Assembly (NCBI GenBank): GCA_051439605.1
Contig: JBFRWN010000113.1
Location: 1-60,800, forward strand
Length of the DNA: 60,800 nucleotides
Source: Synechococcus sp.
GTDB taxonomy: Bacteria > Cyanobacteriota > Cyanobacteriia > Thermostichales > PCC-7336
Reading direction: 5' to 3'
Made by a program: the position numbers and the translations under genes. The notes under the pieces are model-generated. The model had not been told where the DNA came from and did not search any database. It saw nothing but the letters and a program-made list of their open reading frames with translations. Positions 188 through 44,647 of the stretch are shown here, piece after piece. Position 1 is the stretch's first letter, and each line of letters starts with the position of its first letter.

Positions 188-1216
188 ATGACGATCGACT
201 CCCACAGAGCATTGGCACTCCAGGTCACCTGTTCGGCTGTGAATCGGGCTGGAGATCGAACTGAAGCGCGATCGCTGATGCAGCAGACCATCGATCGCCT
301 AGCGTCTCAAATTGCCGCCAGCCTTGCCTTTATCGGTCCCGACTGTCGTTTGGTGGTCTTGCCCGAATACCTGCTAACCGGTTTCCCGATGGGGGAGTCC
401 CTGGTCGGTTGGGCAGAAAAAGCTTGCTTGGATATGGACGATCCCTTGTACGACTCTCTGGGGAAAATTGCTCAAACCCACGACATCTTTTTAGCCGGAA
501 ACGCCTACGAACGCGATCCCCATTTTCCGGATCTGTACTTCCAGAGCTGCTTTGCGATCGCACCCACTGGCTCGATTGTTTTGCGATATCGCCGACTTAA
601 TTCCATGTTTGCCCCCACCCCCCACGATGTCTGGGATCGATATCTCGACTGTTACGGCCTGGAGGGCGTTTTTCCCGTGGTTAAAACTGCGATCGGCAAT
701 CTTGCGGCTGTAGCCTCGGATGAAATTTTGTTTCCAGAGGTCGCCCGCTGTTTAGCCATGCGGGGGGCAGAAATTTTTCTGCATCCTACGTCAGAAATTT
801 ACGGCCAGGGACGATCGCCCAAAGACATCGCCAAAATCGCCCGCGCTGTTGAAAATTCAGCCTACGTTATCTCTGCCAATACGGCGGGCATCGCCAATAC
901 CAATATTCCTAGCTCTTCAACAAACGGCGGCTCCCAAATCGTGGACTATCGAGGACTGATTTTGGCTGAGACCGGTGCCGGGGAGAGCATGGCCGCCTTT
1001 GCCGACATCGACCTGGCCGCCCTGCGAAGATATCGCCGTCGGCCGGGGCTAACCAACCTGCTAGCCCGACAGCGACCGGAACTGTATGTTGATTGCTATC
1101 GCCAAGCGCAGATGTATCCTGCCAACACAATGCTGCAGGGTAATGTAGAACGGCAGCACTTTATCCAAACTCAGCGAGACACCATCGCCCATTTAGCCGA
1201 GTTGGGGGTGATTTGA
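188..1216 (+). CDS. Nitrilase-superfamily carbon-nitrogen hydrolase with non-canonical triad
   Basis: VVLPEY, YRRLN, ASDEILFPE, ARAVENSAYV and GGSQIVDYRG motifs of the CN-hydrolase fold; GGAGG SD upstream. Confidence 0.85.
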   Translation: MTIDSHRALALQVTCSAVNRAGDRTEARSLMQQTIDRLASQIAASLAFIGPDCRLVVLPEYLLTGFPMGESLVGWAEKACLDMDDPLYDSLGKIAQTHDIFLAGNAYERDPHFPDLYFQSCFAIAPTGSIVLRYRRLNSMFAPTPHDVWDRYLDCYGLEGVFPVVKTAIGNLAAVASDEILFPEVARCLAMRGAEIFLHPTSEIYGQGRSPKDIAKIARAVENSAYVISANTAGIANTNIPSSSTNGGSQIVDYRGLILAETGAGESMAAFADIDLAALRRYRRRPGLTNLLARQRPELYVDCYRQAQMYPANTMLQGNVERQHFIQTQRDTIAHLAELGVI

Positions 1217-1218
1217 GA

Positions 1219-2640
1219 ATGGCTGGCCCCATTGACGTTCGCAATCCCCGCACGGGGAAGTTCGATTATCGGATTGAACCCCCAGCATCGGATCGATTGG
1301 CTCAGCTTTGCGATCGCTTGCGCAGCGCTCAACAAGATTGGCAAGCTGGAGGGCTGAAACGGCGTATCGAGGCTCTACAGCAGTGGAAGCAGTCCTTGCT
1401 CGATCGCAAAGAGGAGCTGGTTCGAGCGTTAACGGTCGATACGGGCAGACGGACGGAATCGGTGCTCGAACTGGATTCGGTGGTTTCCAGCATCGATCGC
1501 TGGTGTCGGCTAGCCCCCATATTACTGTTGGAAGCTGAGCCTCAGTCCTCCGCAATTCCCTTCATCCAATTACAGCAGCAGCTCGTTCCCTATCCCTTGG
1601 TCGGAGTCATCAGCCCCTGGAATTTTCCGCTGTTACTATCCGCGATCGACACCATTCCGGCTTTGCTGGCAGGCTGTGCCGTAGTCGTGAAACCGAGTGA
1701 AATCGCTCCTCGATTTATCCAACCTTTGGTAGAGGCGATCGCGACTGTCCCTCATCTACGAGATGTCTTGACTTACGTGGAAGGGGCAGGGGAAACGGGG
1801 GCTGCCTTAGTCGGTTGCGTCGATCTGGTTTGCTTTACCGGTAGCGTGGCGACGGGCCGAACAGTGGCAGAGGCCGCAGCTAAACGCTTGATTCCGGCGT
1901 TTTTAGAGTTGGGGGGTAAAGATCCGGCGATCGTGCTGTCCTCTGCCGATATCGAGCTGGCCACCTCAGCCATCCTGTGGGGCTCGACGGTCAATACCGG
2001 TCAATCCTGTCTCTCCATTGAACGAATTTATGTTGACGAAGCAATATTTCAGCCCTTTGTAGAAACGCTGACTCGCAAGGCAAAGCAGTTGCAATTAACC
2101 TATCCAACGGTTGACAGTGGCCAAATCGGTCCCATCATTGCCAAGAAACAGGCGGTGATTATTTCCGCACACCTCAATGAAGCCGTGGCAAAGGGCGCAG
2201 TGGTGCATTGTGGAGGGGCGATCGAAGAATTAGGTGGAGGGCTGTGGTGTCGCCCAACAGTTTTAACAGGGGTGGAGCAATCGATGAAGGTGATGTCAGA
2301 GGAAACCTTCGGCCCGATTATGCCGGTGATGCCGTTTTCGACGATCGAAGCAGGGGTGGAACTGGCCAACGACACAAGCTACGGTCTCAGTGCGGCGGTG
2401 TTTGCCGGAACGGAGTCCGACGCAATCACCATCGGTCGCCGGATCGAGGCGGGTGGCATCAGTATTAACGATGCTGCGCTGACGGCCCTGATCTACGAAG
2501 GGGAGAAGAATGCCTTTAAACAGTCCGGATTAGGGGGGTCGCGCATGGGGCCAGCTTCCTTGAGTCGATTTGTGCGCAAGCAAGCCTTTTTGATCAAAAC
2601 AAACCCAGTCCCCGATCCCTGGTGGTTCGATCTCCGATAA
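1219..2640 (+). CDS. Aldehyde dehydrogenase
   Basis: ISPWNFP, FTGS, LELGGKD, GQSC and EETFGP motifs intact; ATG 2 nt after the upstream stop. Confidence 0.95.
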   Translation: MAGPIDVRNPRTGKFDYRIEPPASDRLAQLCDRLRSAQQDWQAGGLKRRIEALQQWKQSLLDRKEELVRALTVDTGRRTESVLELDSVVSSIDRWCRLAPILLLEAEPQSSAIPFIQLQQQLVPYPLVGVISPWNFPLLLSAIDTIPALLAGCAVVVKPSEIAPRFIQPLVEAIATVPHLRDVLTYVEGAGETGAALVGCVDLVCFTGSVATGRTVAEAAAKRLIPAFLELGGKDPAIVLSSADIELATSAILWGSTVNTGQSCLSIERIYVDEAIFQPFVETLTRKAKQLQLTYPTVDSGQIGPIIAKKQAVIISAHLNEAVAKGAVVHCGGAIEELGGGLWCRPTVLTGVEQSMKVMSEETFGPIMPVMPFSTIEAGVELANDTSYGLSAAVFAGTESDAITIGRRIEAGGISINDAALTALIYEGEKNAFKQSGLGGSRMGPASLSRFVRKQAFLIKTNPVPDPWWFDLR

Positions 2641-2675
2641 GGCGTTATTAGTAGGCCCTGACAGCGATTATCCCC

Positions 2676-3650
2676 ATGAGAGCAGCACTCATTCACGCAT
2701 ATAACGGTCCAGCTTCTGTCCGAGTTGAGGAGGTGGAGGTACCGGAACCAGGTGCGGGGGAAGTCAGGATTCGGGTGGCGGCTGCAGGGATGAACAACTC
2801 CGACCTGCAGACCACCTATGGCGCTTACCGAGGATACGGTCACAAGGGACTGCCCCATATTCTGGGTCAAGAGGCTGCGGGGTGGGTGGATGCAGTGGGA
2901 TTGGATGTGACGGAATTCGTGCCCGGCATGCGCGTAGTCGGCCACGTCAGCGGTGCCTTTGCCGAAATGGCGATCGCTCCTGCAGCCGAGTTGCTAGCGC
3001 TGCCCGATGACATTTCGTTTGAGGTGGCAGCCAGTCTTCCCATCGCCTATCTGACAGCTTGTATGGCACTCGTTCATAAAGCCAAGGTCAAAGCTGGTGA
3101 ATGGGTGCTCGTACATCCAGGAAGTGGAGGGGTGGGGACGGCGGCGATTCAACTGGCCAAGCTGCTGGGGGCACAAGTCATGGCAACCGCAGGGACGGCA
3201 GCTAAGGTGGACTACCTGATCGAACTGGGGGTCGACTGCGCGATCGATCGCAGCACTCTGGATGTGGTCTCCGAAGTTCGCAAGATTGTCGGGGATGCTG
3301 GAGTTGAGGTGGCTCTCGATGGTGGGGGGAAAGTGACGTTGCCGGAGTGTTTGGAGTGCATCGCTAACAATGGCCGAATTGTCTCGTACGGTTACACAAC
3401 GGGGATGAAAGCAACTTGGCCCATCGCTAAAGCGATCGGGCGCAACGTCACCCTCTACAGCATTGCCCTCTGGTACAACTGTGACTATCAAGTCACACTG
3501 GAAACCCTGGGCAATCTTGTCCTTCCAGCCGCTGCTGAAGGCAAATTACGGCCAACCATTGATGAGGTGATCGATCTGGATGGTGTGTCTGATGCGTTAG
3601 TTCGAATTGAGAAGCGCGGTCTGAGGGGGAAGATTGTTGTACTTCCATAA
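2676..3650 (+). CDS. Zinc-independent MDR / NADPH:quinone oxidoreductase-type reductase
   Basis: AAGMNNSD, LGQEAAG, GSGGVGTAAIQLAK and C-terminal GKIVV; no Zn-ligand cysteines. Confidence 0.9.
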   Translation: MRAALIHAYNGPASVRVEEVEVPEPGAGEVRIRVAAAGMNNSDLQTTYGAYRGYGHKGLPHILGQEAAGWVDAVGLDVTEFVPGMRVVGHVSGAFAEMAIAPAAELLALPDDISFEVAASLPIAYLTACMALVHKAKVKAGEWVLVHPGSGGVGTAAIQLAKLLGAQVMATAGTAAKVDYLIELGVDCAIDRSTLDVVSEVRKIVGDAGVEVALDGGGKVTLPECLECIANNGRIVSYGYTTGMKATWPIAKAIGRNVTLYSIALWYNCDYQVTLETLGNLVLPAAAEGKLRPTIDEVIDLDGVSDALVRIEKRGLRGKIVVLP

Positions 3651-3733
3651 GCTTGAATAGCGAATTCATTTCTGAAGTGCACAATCAAATTTGAAATCGA
3701 TTGAGTTTGACTTTTTAAATATGAGGATATTCC

Positions 3734-4180
3734 ATGTCTACTATCCGAGATGAAATGCCCGTACTGGTTCGGCACGAAGGCACGTGGGAAGGTTCGTATA
3801 CCGTTATCGATAATGATTGCAAGATTATCGACCAACACAAGTCCCGTGTCACCTGCGAATTTCCCAAAGATGCTGCTTCGCCTTACTTTCAAACCAATCG
3901 ATACGAATGGCCCGATGGCCAGGTTCAGGAGTATCAGTTTCCAGGGGACTACTGCGACAAAAAACTCTGGTTTGACACAGAACGAATTGAAGGAAAGGCT
4001 TGGGAAGCTGACGATTCAATCATTATCTTGTGGTTTAGTTACAAAGATATACCAGATGCCTATGTTTATGAAATGATTCATATTAGCCCTTGTAACAATC
4101 ATCGCGCCCGCACCTGGCACTGGTTTAAAAATGGTGAAATTTATCAGCGAACTCTGATTAAAGAAGAGCGAATACGATAA
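3734..4180 (+). CDS. DUF3598-like small beta-barrel protein
   Basis: RHEGTWEGSY start and RARTWHWFKNG...RTLIKEER end, typical of calycin/FABP-like barrels; GAGGA SD. Confidence 0.7.
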   Translation: MSTIRDEMPVLVRHEGTWEGSYTVIDNDCKIIDQHKSRVTCEFPKDAASPYFQTNRYEWPDGQVQEYQFPGDYCDKKLWFDTERIEGKAWEADDSIIILWFSYKDIPDAYVYEMIHISPCNNHRARTWHWFKNGEIYQRTLIKEERIR

Positions 4181-4215
4181 GAATATCTGACTCATTAGAA
4201 AGTTAGGATGTCAAG

Positions 4216-5034
4216 ATGGAACACCGAATCGAGAGGGCATTCCTAGATTTTGAAGATGGGCAGATTCATTACCGCATCGCAGGAGAAGGCGATCCCCTAC
4301 TGTTGCTGCACATGACCCCTCGCAGTAGCGATGAATTCCGGGAATTGATGCCAATTCTGGCTCAAAACAGATGTGCGATCGCAATGGATTTAATGGGTTT
4401 AGGCGATTCTGACCGTCCTCCCCGAGTTTATTCTGTAGCGGACTATGCCAAAACAGCGATCGCACTATTGGATCAATTAGGTGTCAAAAAAAGCAGCATT
4501 CTCGGAAATCTTACAGGGGGATATATCGCAGGAGAAATAGCAGCGACCTATCCCGATCGGGTTGATAAACTTATCCTTTGCAATGTATTTGGATTTGACG
4601 AAGAAGAGAGAGACAAAATATTGCAGAGGTACACTGAAGGGTTTGCCATTAAAGATGATGGTTCCCACTTATTAGAACGATGGTTAGCTCGCGTCAATTA
4701 TGTCGGCAAGGGGCAATTAAATCACCGCTGTGTTATCGACGATCTGAAATGCTTTGGCTCTCCCGTATACACCGGTTTGGCTGTGGCAAACTATTGCCTT
4801 ACAGCCAAAGAACGATTTCAGTTAATTAAATGCCCCACTCTGATTTTGTCTGGCGAAAATGCTTTAGAACCATTAGAAAACGCTGGTTTAGCAAAGACTG
4901 AGAATCAACTTTGGCTATCGGAAGCAATTCCCCATAGTCAAAGGGTCGAACTGGGAGACGGAACCCTCTGGATGATGAATCAAATGCCTGAGGAAGTATC
5001 GCAAATTGTCGTCAATTTTCTGGAAAGCTATTAG
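4216..5034 (+). CDS. Alpha/beta-hydrolase fold protein, paralog 1, atypical elbow GNLTG
   Basis: PLLLLH, DLMGLGDSD, YPDRVDKLIL and PTLILSG motifs. Confidence 0.9.
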   Translation: MEHRIERAFLDFEDGQIHYRIAGEGDPLLLLHMTPRSSDEFRELMPILAQNRCAIAMDLMGLGDSDRPPRVYSVADYAKTAIALLDQLGVKKSSILGNLTGGYIAGEIAATYPDRVDKLILCNVFGFDEEERDKILQRYTEGFAIKDDGSHLLERWLARVNYVGKGQLNHRCVIDDLKCFGSPVYTGLAVANYCLTAKERFQLIKCPTLILSGENALEPLENAGLAKTENQLWLSEAIPHSQRVELGDGTLWMMNQMPEEVSQIVVNFLESY

Positions 5035-5044
5035 GAGGAAGACA

Positions 5045-5968
5045 ATGCAAAACAACCTACCGCTGATTATCGAGTGTCGTTGCAACGACATGGACTACCG
5101 CCAAGATAATCCCGCTTTTCCTTACAGTCCGCAGGAGATCGTCCGGGAAGCAGTTCGAGCTTGGGAAGCGGGAGCCTCGATTTTTCACTGGCACGGGCGC
5201 GATCCAGTTAGTGGAGAGTGGATCAACGACGTTGAACTCTATCTTGAAGTGATTCAGGGCATCCGGGAAAAGACCGATCTGATTGTCGATCCGACGCTTG
5301 GCTACATCACCACGCAGAAGAGTGTCGAGGATCGCGTCCGCCATATTTTAGCTGCGAAGAACGATCCAGCACTCGGAGTTGACATGGTCCCTCTGGAATT
5401 TGGTTCGTTCAATGTGGACTTTTGGGACCCACAAAGCAAGCAATTCAAGACGTACGACCAAGTTTATGCCAATTCTCGGGCTCACATTCAGGGGGTGCTA
5501 GAGATACTGAAGGAGCACAATATTTACGTCAGTTGCGCCTGTTGGAACATCGGCCAGATTAGGGCGGCACGTTGCTTTCAAGAGATGGGCTTCCTGTCAC
5601 ACAATACGTTCTGGGAGTTTGTCTTCACCGGAGAAATTATGCCAGCTGGTGCTCTGGGGACGTTCTCTGGTGTGCAGGCGATGGTGGATGCCATTCCCCC
5701 TGCCGAACCGTGGTTGGTCATGTGTTGGAATGGGGATGTCATGCGTTTGGCATCATGGGCAATTACGATGGGAGGCCACGTCGGCATTGGACTCGGAGAT
5801 TGGCCCTACAACCGCTTCGGAACCCCGCACAACGGCGATCTCGTGGAGATGGTTGCCAAGATGGCGCATACCCTCGATCGCGAGGTTGCCACACCAGCTC
5901 AAGCTCGGGAAATCCTGAAGATGTCGCCTCGATCGCAACTAGCAACTGAGGCGGTGCCATCGGCATAG
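5045..5968 (+). CDS. DUF849 / beta-keto-acid cleavage enzyme (BKACE/Kce) family protein, atypical
   Basis: PYSPQEI, AGASIFHWHGRD, GGHVGIGLGD and REVATPAQAREIL; start placed at ATG 5045 after AGGAGG. Confidence 0.85.
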   Translation: MQNNLPLIIECRCNDMDYRQDNPAFPYSPQEIVREAVRAWEAGASIFHWHGRDPVSGEWINDVELYLEVIQGIREKTDLIVDPTLGYITTQKSVEDRVRHILAAKNDPALGVDMVPLEFGSFNVDFWDPQSKQFKTYDQVYANSRAHIQGVLEILKEHNIYVSCACWNIGQIRAARCFQEMGFLSHNTFWEFVFTGEIMPAGALGTFSGVQAMVDAIPPAEPWLVMCWNGDVMRLASWAITMGGHVGIGLGDWPYNRFGTPHNGDLVEMVAKMAHTLDREVATPAQAREILKMSPRSQLATEAVPSA

Positions 5969-6013
5969 ATGTCAAATAGGGTGGGCAATAGCGATAGGGG
6001 TCTGGATTGACAG

Positions 6014-6847
6014 ATGAGCAAGAAAATTAAACGGGCATTTTTAGACACAGAAGACGGACAGATTCTTTACCGCATCGGTGGAGAAGGCGAGCCATTGCTC
6101 TTACTGCACATGAATCCTCGCAGCAGCGATGAATTTCGCGAGTTGATGCCCATCCTTGCTCGAAATAGACGAGTCATCGCAATGGATTTGATGGGGTTTG
6201 GCGATTCCGACAAGCCACCCAGAATGTACACAATTGCCGATTATGCCAATACTGTAATTGCACTATTAGACGAATTAGATATCAACAAGACGAGCATTTT
6301 AGGCAACCATACAGGGGCTTTTGTCGCGGGAGAGGTGGCGGCAGCCTATCCCGATCGGGTTGACAAACTTGTATTGGGAAATGTGCCTGGATTTGGAGAA
6401 GAAGGGAAAGCCAAGCTATTTGAGTTGTTCGATATCGGCTTCAAAATCAAAGACGATGGTTCCCACTTAATGCAAAGATGGCAGGCCCGTTCCAGATACG
6501 TCGGATCTGCCGAGCTCAACCACCGATGGGTTTTAGACGACTTAAAATGTTTTGGCCATCCTTTATACGCCGTTTGGGCCGTGGGAGAATACTGTCTGGA
6601 TGCTGAAGATAGATTGCGAGCGATCGCATGTCCAACACTCATCATGTGGGGAATGGAAGACGTGCGAGAATTTGAGCGCCTCGGCTTGGCAAAACCTGAA
6701 AATCGCTATTTTGTCTCTCAAGCTATTCCCCACGGCAAGGTGGTTGAATTTGAACAGGGGACCATCTGCATGATGAACCAGATGCCTGAAGAGGTATCCA
6801 AGGTTGTCATCGATTTCCTAAATCATTCGGAATCGCCCAGCCTCTAA
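6014..6847 (+). CDS. Alpha/beta-hydrolase fold protein, paralog 2, atypical elbow GNHTG
   Basis: Collinear homolog of 4216-5034 with the same motifs. Confidence 0.9.
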   Translation: MSKKIKRAFLDTEDGQILYRIGGEGEPLLLLHMNPRSSDEFRELMPILARNRRVIAMDLMGFGDSDKPPRMYTIADYANTVIALLDELDINKTSILGNHTGAFVAGEVAAAYPDRVDKLVLGNVPGFGEEGKAKLFELFDIGFKIKDDGSHLMQRWQARSRYVGSAELNHRWVLDDLKCFGHPLYAVWAVGEYCLDAEDRLRAIACPTLIMWGMEDVREFERLGLAKPENRYFVSQAIPHGKVVEFEQGTICMMNQMPEEVSKVVIDFLNHSESPSL

Positions 6848-7263
6848 CGGTCGAGGACTGCCGTACACTTAATCTCTACGATTAGCCCTGGCGTAGATAA
6901 ACCCGTCACCCCAACTCCCGTCCAGGTGGGGAATTGATGGGTGAAGTACCGATCTTTAACCTGCATAAACAGCGGCAGGTGAGGAATTGTCACTGGAGTT
7001 TTCTCTGCTTCGGTCACGTGGTAAGTCATCATCTCGACGACATCATCGAACGTGGCGCCTGCAGCCGACAGTACCTTTTTCACATTCTCGAACGCTTGTA
7101 CAAATTGAGCTTCTAGTTCTTCGACAACTTGTAAATTCTCATCGCGTCCCACCTGCCCCGAGATATACAGCGTATTCCCGACCTTAATGCCAGGGCAATA
7201 GCGATACTTCTCGTATAAGATTTCCATCCCTGGCGGGATAATGACGTCGCGGGTTGTGCTCAT
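6844..7263 (-). CDS. Rid (RidA/YjgF) family protein, Arg-less Rid4-7 type
   Basis: LYISGQVG, AFENVKKVLSAAG, PTWTGVGV and VEIKCTA motifs. Confidence 0.85.
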   Translation of the reverse strand: MSTTRDVIIPPGMEILYEKYRYCPGIKVGNTLYISGQVGRDENLQVVEELEAQFVQAFENVKKVLSAAGATFDDVVEMMTYHVTEAEKTPVTIPHLPLFMQVKDRYFTHQFPTWTGVGVTGLSTPGLIVEIKCTAVLDR

Positions 7264-7337
7264 GGCAAATATCCTCGATATCCTCTCGTCGATCGACGTA
7301 ATGTACTACTGGAGATGAAACCTCTGAGGTCAAGCTC

Positions 7338-8129
7338 GTGAAAGTCGCACTGCTCACTGGAGGCACTCGCGGCATTGGTTTAGCGATCGCTCGCAAGCTG
7401 GCAAGTGACAGCTTCAATCTTATCCTCGGCTACCGTTCCGATCGCCAAGCTGCTCTTGCAGCCAAGACCGACTTAGAAACCTATAACGTCAAGGTTGTGA
7501 CGGTGGCGGGAGACGTCAAGGAGAGCGAGACAGTTGACTCCCTGTTCGAGGCGGTCGAAGTAGACTTTGGCGGTCAGCTGACTGCCTTCGTGCACGTGGC
7601 TGGGTATGCCATTACGGCCACGCTACCGGCTGGATTCACGTTCGAACAATACGAGGAGGCTCAGAGTCTTTATCCAAAGGCGTTTCTGAGGTGCATGGAG
7701 AAAGCGGTGAGGTATATGCCTGACAGGGAGGGACGGGCGATCGCTATTTCTGCCAGTGGTGTGCACAATCCTGGCAAAGTCTATGCCATGTCTGCACCTG
7801 CAAAAGCTGGAATGGAGGTATTGGCTAAGCACTACGCGATCGCCCTGGCTCCGCGGGGCATTACGGTCAACATCGTAACGCCGGGCTATGTCAAAACTCA
7901 GGCGTGGGACGGATATCTGGACGCTTTACCCGAAATCGCTCGGGTCCCCCAACAGAGCACCCCCATGGGGAGATGGGGGCAGCCGGAAGATATTGCCCCC
8001 TTGGTCGCTTTCCTATGCTCTCAAGACAGCGGATTCATTACAGGACAACATATTTACGTGGATGGGGGGTTAAGCCTTTCTTTGTTTTGGAACATTCATC
8101 GGATGAGCGACAATTCCCAGTCCGATTAG
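7338..8129 (+). CDS. SDR oxidoreductase, divergent enoyl-reductase-like type
   Basis: TGGTRGIG, Y-x6-K (YAMSAPAK), VNIVTPG and ITGQHIYVDGG. Confidence 0.88.
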   Translation: MKVALLTGGTRGIGLAIARKLASDSFNLILGYRSDRQAALAAKTDLETYNVKVVTVAGDVKESETVDSLFEAVEVDFGGQLTAFVHVAGYAITATLPAGFTFEQYEEAQSLYPKAFLRCMEKAVRYMPDREGRAIAISASGVHNPGKVYAMSAPAKAGMEVLAKHYAIALAPRGITVNIVTPGYVKTQAWDGYLDALPEIARVPQQSTPMGRWGQPEDIAPLVAFLCSQDSGFITGQHIYVDGGLSLSLFWNIHRMSDNSQSD

Positions 8130-8179
8130 TCAGAGATCCTAACCGTGATATCTGTGAATGTTTAGAATTATGGCATCTT

Positions 8180-8977
8180 TCATTCGCCATAAGATGACAC
8201 TGCCCCTGTTTGTGATAAATCGCGATCGACGCGAACAAAAAATAAGCCACCTGCCTCTGTCTTATGTCTAGGAACAGTTGAAAAGCTAGGACAATAACTG
8301 AAATGATTTTTGGCGAATCTGTAATTTCCGATATCGCAATACCCAAATAAGCCGTATGACTTTTCGTTATAGGCTTGAATCATGGCATGCCTGCCATCGT
8401 AATGCGGCAAAATAGCGATTAGCCAAGTTCCACCCCCATTTTTATCTTTTCTGAGCCACTTCTTTTTGGAGGTCTCAAACTGAACTGTTTCAGTCTTGCC
8501 CCACGGCAACAATGTGCTATCCAAAGCTGGAATAAAGTCTCTTAATCTGGTGTCAGGGCGATCGCCTTGTGCGGCTTCGTAGCTAAGGGGAACAGGCCCG
8601 TTCTCCATCCACAGAAGGTCCGCATTCTCTCCACCCAGCACTTTCCAAGGACCTATATTGACTCCAGCCGGAATGAAGGAATAACCATGCTTGCCCAGTT
8701 TCCACTCTCCTATTTGGATTGCGCCCGACAGCACAAAAATCTCTACATCGGCAGAGAATATTCCAGAGGGAGCCTCAAAATTTTGCGGCAGCATCACTCT
8801 TGAAGTGGATGCTCCGGAATCACGCCAAGTCAGCAATCGACGTTTGCCCGCTATCACCCCTGCGGACATGCCATCGATGCGCCATTCCCGTTCCGCTACG
8901 GCATTGGTATCAAAAAACTGGTATTGCCGAGGTCGGTAGTCATCCGAGCTTGCTGTGGTTCTTCCCGATAAGTTCAT
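8180..8977 (-). CDS. Bicupin protein (DUF4437-like)
   Basis: Two cupin-like repeats (VEIFVLSG..IG...YSFIPAG; G..DIG...FSYCP); family recognised by eye. Confidence 0.6.
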   Translation of the reverse strand: MNLSGRTTASSDDYRPRQYQFFDTNAVAEREWRIDGMSAGVIAGKRRLLTWRDSGASTSRVMLPQNFEAPSGIFSADVEIFVLSGAIQIGEWKLGKHGYSFIPAGVNIGPWKVLGGENADLLWMENGPVPLSYEAAQGDRPDTRLRDFIPALDSTLLPWGKTETVQFETSKKKWLRKDKNGGGTWLIAILPHYDGRHAMIQAYNEKSYGLFGYCDIGNYRFAKNHFSYCPSFSTVPRHKTEAGGLFFVRVDRDLSQTGAVSSYGE

Positions 8978-8984
8978 CTGCCTC

Positions 8985-9083
8985 TTACCCTCTGACCCAA
9001 TTCACTTTGAGAGGTGAATCCTGCAAACAGCGATCGACTGCTCGTTCGCGATCGCCCTCCAACTCTCTCAGCAAATCGTCCAT
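8985..9083 (-). CDS. Possible 32-aa small ORF or gene remnant (MDDLLRELEGDRERAVDRCLQDSPLKVNWVRG)
   Basis: AGGAGG SD upstream of the ATG; stop lies 7 nt before the bicupin ATG; below the ORF-track cutoff. Confidence 0.35.
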   Translation of the reverse strand: MDDLLRELEGDRERAVDRCLQDSPLKVNWVRG

Positions 9084-9164: not shown

Positions 9165-9195
9165 AAGTCCCCCATGAGTGGGGGATTTAGGGGGC
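9165..9195. repeat. Cyanobacterial short dispersed palindromic repeat (REP/SDR-like)
   Basis: AAGTCCCCCATGAGTGGGGGATTTAGGGGGC: TCCCCCA/TGGGGGA stem plus a G-run tail. Confidence 0.55.
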
Positions 9196-9261
9196 CACAT
9201 CTCAGCACATTTTCCTAAGATGAAAAGGATTGAAACTCACAAGAGCCCATAGGAGCACCCC

Positions 9262-43468: not shown

Positions 43469-44647
43469 ATGACGGCACACATCACCCGACCAGATGATCT
43501 GGAACAGTCTTTGGATCGGGAAGAGCTGCAGCCACTGCAGACAGAACAACCACCTCAGCGCGAAACATCATCAACAAAGTTCAGCCTACGAAAGGCAACC
43601 ATTAACCCAAACCACTGGTATGCGGTAGCACGCGAAGTAGAGGTCACCGATCGCCCTTTGGCCGTGACGTTCTGGAACGAAAACATCGTGCTGTTTCGCA
43701 ACAGCGGTGGTGAGATTCGAGCATTAGAAAACCGCTGTCCCCACCGCCAAGTGCAGCTCGGCCACGGCTGCGTGAAGGGCGATCGGATTGTGTGTGCTTA
43801 TCACGGTTGGGAATTTGATGGTGCTGGAAGCTGTGTCGGCATTCCTTACCTGACTGAAAACCAGCGATTACCCCACTGCCAAGTCCGCAGCTATGCCGTG
43901 CAACAAAAGGATGGATTTATCTGGGTTTTTCCGGGCAATGCGGAACTAGCGGGGGAGAGGGAGCCGCTGTCGCTGCCCGAATGGAATCATCTCAATTTCA
44001 TTGCTGCCGTCACTCCTGTAGATGTGCGAGCCCACTTTTCTTACTTGATTGAAAATTTGATGGATATGTACCACGGGCATTTACATGACGATCTGCAGGC
44101 TTGGGCAAATGCCAAGTTGAAGGGGCTGGAGTCGAGCTACCGCCGCGTCGATGCCCATTACGAAGCCGAGAGCTACTACACAATCGACAAGATTTATTCA
44201 GTAGCCCAGCTATTCGTGAGAGCGCTACGGAAATTACATCCCGAGCCACTGGATGTGAGTTACGTCTATCCCAACTGGGTGGCTACGCTGGGGGAAGAGT
44301 TTAAAATTGTTTGTCTCTTTTGTCCGGTGAGCGAAACCCACACCCGCGCCTATCTGATGCACTTTACCTCCCTCAAGCCGTTTTGGCGGCTACACAAGCT
44401 ACCGGTTTGGTTCCGCCGCTGGGTAAAAAACCTCTGCTTTAATACCGCTCGGGGAATGCTGGTGGGATTGGTCGAACAGGATGTGTTGATGATTGAAGAG
44501 GAACAGCAGTCCCACGATCGCTATCCCGACCGTAAAAACTTTGAGTTGAATCCAGCGGTAGGGGCGGTGCAGAAATTGATTCGCCAACAGGCGGAAAATT
44601 GTCAGAGACAAGCAATACAAAGAGACACAGATGTACCGTGTCGCTAG
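43469..44647 (+). CDS. cruH: Rieske non-heme iron oxygenase (CruH-like)
   Basis: CPHR...CAYHGW and ENLMDMYHGHLH; identity inferred from the family and the adjacent cruE-like gene. Confidence 0.62.
   Translation: MTAHITRPDDLEQSLDREELQPLQTEQPPQRETSSTKFSLRKATINPNHWYAVAREVEVTDRPLAVTFWNENIVLFRNSGGEIRALENRCPHRQVQLGHGCVKGDRIVCAYHGWEFDGAGSCVGIPYLTENQRLPHCQVRSYAVQQKDGFIWVFPGNAELAGEREPLSLPEWNHLNFIAAVTPVDVRAHFSYLIENLMDMYHGHLHDDLQAWANAKLKGLESSYRRVDAHYEAESYYTIDKIYSVAQLFVRALRKLHPEPLDVSYVYPNWVATLGEEFKIVCLFCPVSETHTRAYLMHFTSLKPFWRLHKLPVWFRRWVKNLCFNTARGMLVGLVEQDVLMIEEEQQSHDRYPDRKNFELNPAVGAVQKLIRQQAENCQRQAIQRDTDVPCR

Follow-up and report, generated by a model that had tools for sequence, protein, structure and literature searches.

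A conserved multi-phylum gene module with unusual active sites in a Synechococcus contig, and its proposed role in the catabolism of open-chain tetrapyrroles

Introduction

Plants dismantle chlorophyll by the PAO/phyllobilin pathway (chlorophyllase/PPH, PAO and red chlorophyll catabolite reductase, RCCR), for which a prokaryotic counterpart has been proposed (bioRxiv 10.64898/2026.03.19.712979). The same preprint (2026) puts yearly chlorophyll turnover at about 10^9 tonnes and calls the prokaryotic role in it unknown; RCCR homologues were found most often in Actinomycetota, Pseudomonadota and Cyanobacteriota, and its main text holds no neighbourhood analysis, the terms nitrilase, operon, gene cluster, synteny and CpcT never occurring there. 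RCCR-like genes of Nostoc have been reported with role unknown (PMC2716323), and RCCRs serve as an outgroup in another study (PMC10151467). CpcT is a characterised bilin lyase, and a 2008 review stated that few details of biliprotein degradation were known and that the lyase homologues of non-photosynthetic organisms were uncharacterised (PMC2327270). Maleimides, the dipyrrolic propentdyopents and bilirubin oxidation end products (BOXes) are breakdown products of heme and chlorophyll, arising from the open-chain pigments (PMC7318184, PMC9840898). Here, we analysed a ten-gene cluster (positions 188 to 9083) in a 60,800-nucleotide stretch of Synechococcus sp. DNA, hereafter the window, for which an earlier note had proposed a dedicated pathway for an N-heterocyclic substrate, perhaps a tetrapyrrole catabolite. 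In the literature searched, outside which most subscription papers lay, we found neither a description of this cluster nor a characterised pathway that matches it.

Results

The cluster represents a gene module conserved across phyla

Seven co-directional plus-strand genes (188-6847) are followed by a Rid gene (-), a short-chain dehydrogenase/reductase (SDR) gene (+) and a DUF4437 bicupin gene (-); the gene count, order, strands and family labels of the earlier note all agreed with our open reading frame (ORF) and family scans. The first gene (188..1216, +; PF00795, E 1e-29) encodes the nitrilase-superfamily protein that we used as marker of the core, and it overlaps the gene of an aldehyde dehydrogenase (ALDH; 1213..2640, +; PF00171; start TTG 1213 or ATG 1219). 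The other core proteins are a single-domain, ten-stranded calycin barrel of the DUF3598 type (3734..4180, +; PF12204) and proteins of the alpha/beta-hydrolase fold, of which the window encodes two (4216..5034 and 6014..6847, both +), the latter belonging to the extended core. The window is contig C113 of the cyanobacterial assembly G000 (143 contigs); its position 1 is the contig end and no other contig of the assembly overlaps it, and the left flank of the cluster is missing.

Among 400 other genomes sampled from the phylum, 26 yielded an orthologue of the nitrilase-like protein (in one of them a fragment), and a scan of species genomes returned 80 loci from an estimated ~1,900 matching stretches. 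The resulting synteny set comprised 108 loci, 40 from cyanobacteria (where one genome or more is represented twice) and 68 from other bacteria; antisense ORF clusters were disregarded as shadows of real genes, and the family scans covered recurrent or selected neighbours. The homologues proved to be syntenic. An ALDH orthologue was present in 80 of the 108 loci (38/40 cyanobacterial and 42/68 others) and lay no more than 700 bases after the nitrilase gene in 55/108, while the barrel was present in 51 (29/40 and 22/68). Hydrolases were found in 14/40 and 12/68 loci and DUF4437 in 11/40 and 14/68; Rid, SDR and DUF849 genes were found in 6, 3 and 2 of the 40 cyanobacterial loci, respectively, and in 0/68 others. 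The core is therefore formed by the nitrilase, the ALDH, the barrel and often a hydrolase, and the rest is accessory. This core recurs in cyanobacteria and in five non-photosynthetic phyla. Thus, what remains of the proposed ten-gene pathway is a conserved syntenic core of only about four of the ten genes, and the cluster represents the cyanobacterial version of a module that several phyla have in common.

The nine cluster genes with a comparable orthologue gave ratios of nonsynonymous to synonymous substitution (dN/dS) of ~0.08-0.13. As judged by sequence comparison, the core is under purifying selection and the cluster is not a chance assembly, and simple decay, against which the earlier note had argued, is largely refuted for the core genes by these ratios, family-wide substitutions (described below) and synteny over six phyla.

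Recurrent neighbours absent from the window are grouped on another contig of the assembly (G000:C30:26200-38300; L039, L040), which encodes an allantoinase-like amidohydrolase, an Asp-hydroxylase-like protein, a SnoaL protein, a 342-aa protein without a Pfam match and two DUF1838 proteins, with an Old Yellow Enzyme gene between two of these genes. In genome G002, the amidohydrolase and hydroxylase genes are directly upstream of the nitrilase gene. Three further families of recurrent neighbours, those of L048:8910-9644 (12 loci), of a 223-aa protein (25 loci) and of a 242-aa protein (14 loci), had no Pfam or NCBIfam match.

Three active sites are unusual and conserved

When aligned to solved structures, the nitrilase-like protein carries Glu60-Arg136-Ser177 (E-R-S) at the positions of the canonical Glu-Lys-Cys (E-K-C) triad. 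All 120 of the 120 closest homologues among the matches listed have E-R-S, so the substitutions are not private to this strain, and E-K-C or E-R-C predominates among the more distant members sampled. Fifty-nine E-R-S rows from six phyla form one branch of the tree (98/95), in which 17 cyanobacterial rows form a sub-branch (100/99), and an alignment of 25 orthologues shows no variation at either Glu60 or Arg136. The nearest named homologue, from Synechococcus sp. PCC 7336, is 87% identical. A sister clade (P0123, P0131, P0135 and others) consists of two-domain nitrilases with one E-K-C domain and one degenerate domain. The ALDH is canonical, with the catalytic Cys and Glu and the PWNFP motif all present; since its gene closely follows the nitrilase gene in 55 loci and overlaps it here, the product of the nitrilase-like protein may be an aldehyde.

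At the nucleophile elbow, the hydrolase at 6014-6847 has His99 (G-N-H-T-G) and that at 4216-5034 has Leu99 (family scan and alignments). Neither has a Ser, Asp or Cys nucleophile or a His at the usual C-terminal site, as a serine or aspartate alpha/beta-hydrolase would. Among 34 aligned homologues, the elbow column holds His in 28, Val or Leu in 4, Ala in 1 and never Ser, Asp or Cys, 1 homologue being unaligned there; the column of Leu99 is Val in 3 orthologues of the 4216-5034 protein. Both hydrolases match the Ndr family weakly, below the cut-off. In one contig of sequencing run X2, the first hydrolase gene has lost a single base.

The earlier note had counted re-wired sites in five proteins and had also described the bicupin as lacking its metal ligands. 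Those of the nitrilase and of both hydrolases are indeed odd and conserved; DUF849 and Rid match subfamilies with solved structures (5ZMU, 1PF5), and the extent of re-wiring was overstated. By alignment, then, three odd sites are conserved and without explanation, those of the nitrilase and of the two hydrolases. These results collectively describe a catabolic module that is real, widespread and so far undescribed, and in which three odd active sites are conserved.

The barrel is modelled as a calycin fold

The model of the DUF3598-like barrel (pLDDT 96) is a ten-stranded calycin-type fold, with predicted matches to BFA1 (Z 17.9), nitrobindins (~14.4), OlmO (14.3), the CpeS lyase (12.3) and CpcT (8.4); no CpeS/CpeT Pfam match was found for it in the family profile scan. 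The DUF1838 model is also a calycin-type barrel, with Z of only 8-9 and poor Foldseek matches (TM ≤0.31). According to these models, the barrel and DUF1838 share the fold of the nitrobindins and of CpcS/CpcT, a fold that is not bilin-specific.

RCCR and CpcT homologues accompany the module

RCCR-like, CpcT-like and DUF1838 genes, which the earlier note had named as neighbours to look for, were all recovered around homologues or in their genomes. The RCCR family (PF06405) was found inside 9/40 cyanobacterial loci, directly upstream of the nitrilase gene in 8 of the 9, and in 3 of 7 RCCR-positive genomes lacking the nitrilase, RCCR directly precedes the same ALDH. An NmrA-family reductase gene stands beside cyanobacterial RCCR-like genes (L015, L017, L018, L126, L127, L129, L130), also where the nitrilase is absent, and in two cyanobacteria a Rieske gene with a PaO domain (L015:5941-7290, L129:4325-5665) points towards the RCCR-ALDH cluster in convergent orientation. 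Outside the cyanobacteria, RCCR and CpcT were counted in 50 nitrilase genomes, with 17 of 67 named loci, mostly on short contigs, left out. RCCR scored over the cut-off in 7/50, and in 3 of those 7 (a gammaproteobacterium, a Chloroflexota member and an actinomycete) it lies 18-34 kb from the nitrilase gene on the same contig. Among Shewanella genomes, which were sampled for a link between the module and the test strain of the preprint, the nitrilase was found in 2/121 and RCCR in 0/121, counts that say nothing about such a link.

The CpcT/CpeT family was found in 24/50 of the same genomes, and one CpcT-family protein matched solved CpcT (4O4O, E 4e-4). Furthermore, among 251 unselected genomes of the order of Hyphomonas, which is non-photosynthetic, 31 have both the nitrilase and CpcT, 7 only the nitrilase, 7 only CpcT and 206 neither, so that CpcT homologues occur in 31/38 nitrilase-positive and 7/213 nitrilase-negative genomes. 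In the 31 genomes with both, the two genes lie within 30 kb of each other in 11, far apart on one contig in 8 and on different contigs in 12. Three non-photosynthetic genomes (G483, G490, G451) have 7-9 CpcT/CpeT-family matches each.

In Alkalimonas, an island of ~65 kb holds the module together with genes for a chlorophyllase-family hydrolase, a Rieske oxygenase, two RCCR-like proteins, a rubredoxin reductase, a CpcT-DUF1330 fusion and TonB receptors, and with a maleamate/maleate/malate set (maleate-isomerase-family, isochorismatase-family, LeuC/D-like, ICL-family and Ich/Ccl-like genes). Counterparts in a Chloroflexota island match solved maleate isomerases and 4L07 and 3OT4, which we take to be maleamate amidases. 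More generally, heterotroph neighbourhoods contain genes for TonB receptors, TRAP/MFS/SSF transporters, a coenzyme A (CoA)-transferase, and HMG-CoA-lyase-like and LeuC/D-like proteins. A separate recurrent heterotroph module (L162-L165, G480:C88:45000-112000; L166-L168, L172, L173) encodes one or more RCCR-like proteins, a Rieske oxygenase, a two-domain nitrilase, a maleate-isomerase-like protein, an FAD monooxygenase, ALDHs and unannotated barrel-like proteins, and is a candidate upper chlorophyll-catabolite pathway.

Three accessory enzymes resemble solved subfamilies

The medium-chain dehydrogenase/reductase (MDR; 2676..3650, +) is of the quinone/ene-reductase type (best match TIGR02824, below the cut-off; further matches 1WLY and 1YB5). 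No orthologue above 40% identity was found among the 108 loci, and other loci have different MDRs.

In Kce enzymes, a C-terminal R-x-G-x-E-D motif supplies the catalytic Arg and a Zn-binding Glu. The DUF849/BKACE-fold protein (5045..5968, +) has VGIGLGD where 3LOT has VRVGLED, thus lacks this motif, and scored below the Kce cut-off. Its closest solved relative is the Zn epoxide hydrolase CESH[D] (5ZMU, E 8e-57), of which R11, D115, E190 and D251 have been named (PMC6429283). R11, both metal His and D251 are common to the two proteins, which differ by E14>D, D115>E and E190>V, with a Glu found two residues before the last; the protein of the cluster is a possible epoxide hydrolase.

The active-site Arg of RidA is a catalytic residue. 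The Rid-family protein (6844..7263, -) has Trp at the position of this Arg in RidA-type 3K0T, and its best match is YjgH (1PF5, E 3e-18). The SDR (7338..8129, +) best matches FabL (3OIC), to which its Y149 and K156 align as Y-x6-K; it scored below the FabL cut-off and is a probable C=C reductase. DUF849, Rid and SDR were therefore rejected as newly re-wired, their patterns being those of CESH[D]-like, YjgH-type and FabL-type subfamilies.

The bicupin is broken in this strain

The DUF4437 bicupin (8180..8977, -) is an orthologue of Npun_F5605 (2QDR, E 1e-128). In line with the earlier note, it lacks the His ligands that the remaining DUF4437 rows possess, a trait of the whole subfamily that includes 2QDR. 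Its gene is 5'-broken near 8995-9000, and the N-terminus apparently lies in another frame, in a 32-codon ORF (8985..9083, -) with a strong Shine-Dalgarno (SD) motif, as read in three frames against homologue N-termini. The contigs of runs X1-X3, all from one study and with X1 as the possible source, span the break without gaps, which makes an assembly error unlikely, and we rejected it. Lys206 stands at an otherwise acidic column where sibling contigs have Glu, and run X4 has a nonsense allele; Lys206 was rejected as a family re-wiring and is taken as a strain allele. The bicupin is probably decaying in this strain, to judge from its reading frame and alleles. With this gene frame-broken, and with an MDR start that has no recognisable SD motif, the statement that all ORFs are intact with good ribosome-binding sites fails.

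Promoter and terminator scans gave signals no better than chance. A short GC-rich inverted repeat at 9165-9200 recruits many unrelated contigs (depth spike) and is probably a dispersed repeat. Downstream of the cluster are carboxysome and NDH-type genes, and 35 kb from it a Rieske oxygenase gene (43469-44644; best NCBIfam match SdmA, below the cut-off) lies upstream of and within a hopanoid-type gene region and is probably unrelated to the cluster.

Discussion

By guilt by association, we propose, at a probability of about 60%, that the module serves the catabolism or detoxification of linear tetrapyrroles (bilins and ring-opened chlorophyll catabolites) and of their pyrrole, pyrrolinone and maleimide fragments. 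A wider proposal, to which we would give somewhat less than even odds, is that it represents an undescribed bacterial core route, in cyanobacteria and five heterotroph phyla, that dismantles open-chain tetrapyrroles after ring opening by means of a C-C/C-N cleaving Glu-Arg-Ser enzyme, His-elbow hydrolase-fold enzymes and catabolic CpcT-type 'lyases'.

Along such a route, the open-chain pigment would be bound by calycin barrels, namely DUF3598 in this cluster, the two DUF1838 proteins of contig C30 and, in heterotrophs, CpcT-like proteins; one of these barrels may add water at a methine bridge. Because its Cys is lost, the Glu-Arg-Ser protein would work without a thioester, with Glu60 as base and Arg136 holding an anion. 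We prefer a base-catalysed retro-aldol or hydrolytic cleavage at the hydrated methine bridge, which would yield a pyrrolinone and pyrrole-2-carbaldehyde; that this is the exact step is doubtful, and the alternative would be that the protein hydrolyses a lactam or a BOX-type acetamide. The coupled ALDH would oxidise pyrrole-2-carbaldehyde to the acid. Reduction of activated C=C bonds would fall to the MDR, the FabL-like SDR and the C30-encoded Old Yellow Enzyme, ring opening of cyclic imides to the allantoinase-like enzyme of C30, and hydrolysis of a substituted epoxysuccinate to the CESH[D]-like protein. Heterotrophs would use the carbon by way of TonB receptors and maleamate/maleate/malate enzymes. 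No ICL-family, CoA-transferase, HMG-CoA-lyase-like, maleate-isomerase-like or Ich/Ccl-like gene was matched in G000, so detoxification of pigment fragments and recovery of nitrogen are likelier here than use of the carbon.

Several observations weigh against a role in tetrapyrrole catabolism. The best fold matches of the barrel are BFA1 and DUF3598 rather than bilin lyases, and the Z of DUF1838 is low. RCCR was found in 0/68 non-cyanobacterial loci within ~10 kb. Family and protein searches did not find RCCR in the 143 contigs of G000 either; the family search matched in no control, and the protein search did recover its own source genome. RCCR was also not found in G002 (a complete genome), G042 or G123, and it is absent from 16/26 nitrilase-positive cyanobacterial genomes. 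The nitrilase and RCCR are weakly associated in the family that commonly has each of them (10/21 vs 5/25, p 0.06), and among 141 genomes of an actinomycete order the nitrilase occurs in 11, RCCR in 7 and both in 2 (or 1 if the chosen centre is excluded, p 0.36). For CpcT, the Fisher p exaggerates the association, since the 251 genomes are kin. The Rieske proteins of the islands match VanA_C and not the PaO family. Pyridine catabolism likewise uses maleamate and maleate enzymes, so the lower-pathway genes would fit it equally well. Lastly, hisS, rejected as a pathway gene, adjoins the cluster in 14 loci, so in Nostocales two genes can be neighbours by coincidence. The weak or absent association, together with the absence of RCCR from these genomes, indicates that RCCR marks a separable upper module. 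Thus, the tetrapyrrole reading of the earlier note gains from the RCCR, CpcT and DUF1838 neighbours, and is held back by a substrate that we infer and by the failure to find RCCR in this genome.

Some of these points feed the strongest rival, which we hold to be unlikely: that the substrate is another N-heterocycle, of the pyridine, indole, pterin or imidazole type, which the module degrades by way of a maleamate-type lower pathway, and that RCCR and CpcT belong to a separate pigment module sharing islands in algae-associated bacteria. Generic C-N hydrolases among the neighbours (allantoinase-like with best matches AllB and ErtD, PuuE-like, amidase and isochorismatase family) and a HutC-type regulator would suit it, as would the uncoupling of RCCR in actinomycetes, its absence from the searches of G000 and the RCCR module's own two-domain nitrilase and ALDHs. 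However, it leaves the co-occurrence with CpcT (31/38 vs 7/213), the nitrilase-free RCCR-ALDH pairs and the linkage to RCCR in four phyla unexplained. Ergothioneine catabolism was rejected despite the ErtD match, no ergothionase- or urocanase-family gene being among the recurrent neighbours scanned.

Replacing Cys with Ser abolishes amidase activity, which would fit a ligand-binding or sensing set with non-catalytic nitrilase and hydrolases, or a tailoring or biosynthetic module; the weak Ndr matches and the resemblance of the barrel to the spirocyclase OlmO point the same way. We consider this improbable, as Glu60 and Arg136 are invariant and the heterotroph module stands amid transporter, CoA-transferase, HMG-CoA-lyase-like and LeuC/D-like genes. 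Least probable is the view that the cluster is a collection of unrelated accessory genes in decay. The broken bicupin with its nonsense allele in a sibling contig, the patchy MDR, DUF849, SDR and Rid genes and the deletion in one X2 contig speak for it, yet the low dN/dS, the family-wide substitutions and the six-phylum synteny of the core largely refute it for the core genes, and it holds for the bicupin only.

If the proposed catabolism of open-chain tetrapyrroles is true, the module would provide the genes behind a little-understood step in pigment turnover, and orphan CpcT, DUF1838, DUF3598, DUF4437 and cyanobacterial RCCR proteins would gain a possible function. Named module genes occur in cultured strains of Paraglaciecola, Thalassotalea, Hyphomonas, Nostoc and Calothrix, which makes the fate of bilins directly testable. 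Whatever the substrate, a Cys-free catalyst with the nitrilase fold would be new enzymology.

Comparison with known systems

The nitrilase-like protein shares its fold family and catalytic Glu with the aliphatic amidase AmiE, the formamidase AmiF and Nit2; in contrast to them, Lys>Arg and Cys>Ser are fixed here, and the best score is 59 bits against cut-offs of 249-500. BFA1 and DUF3598 (5YVF, 2O62) are the closest solved relatives of the barrel, which is single-domain here. YjgH (1PF5) and Npun_F5605 (2QDR), the closest solved relatives of the Rid protein and of the bicupin, were both deposited as uncharacterised or hypothetical; for the SDR the closest is FabL.

NicF and NicE act in the maleamate pathway of nicotinate, and related lower-pathway roles exist in 2,3-dimethylmaleate and itaconate catabolism. 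The islands resemble these routes in having isochorismatase-family genes that match 4L07/3OT4, maleate-isomerase-family, LeuC/D-like, ICL-family and Ich/Ccl-like genes, while the matches named NicE-, ICL- and Ich/Ccl-like by NCBIfam all fall below the cut-off. Unlike in nicotinate catabolism, no pyridine-ring enzymes were recognised, and the core genes have no counterpart there. With the plant PAO/phyllobilin pathway and its proposed prokaryotic counterpart, the resemblance lies in the islands that carry the module, which also hold RCCR-family, Rieske and chlorophyllase-family genes. The cluster in the window has none of those genes, and the module would act after the ring has been opened.

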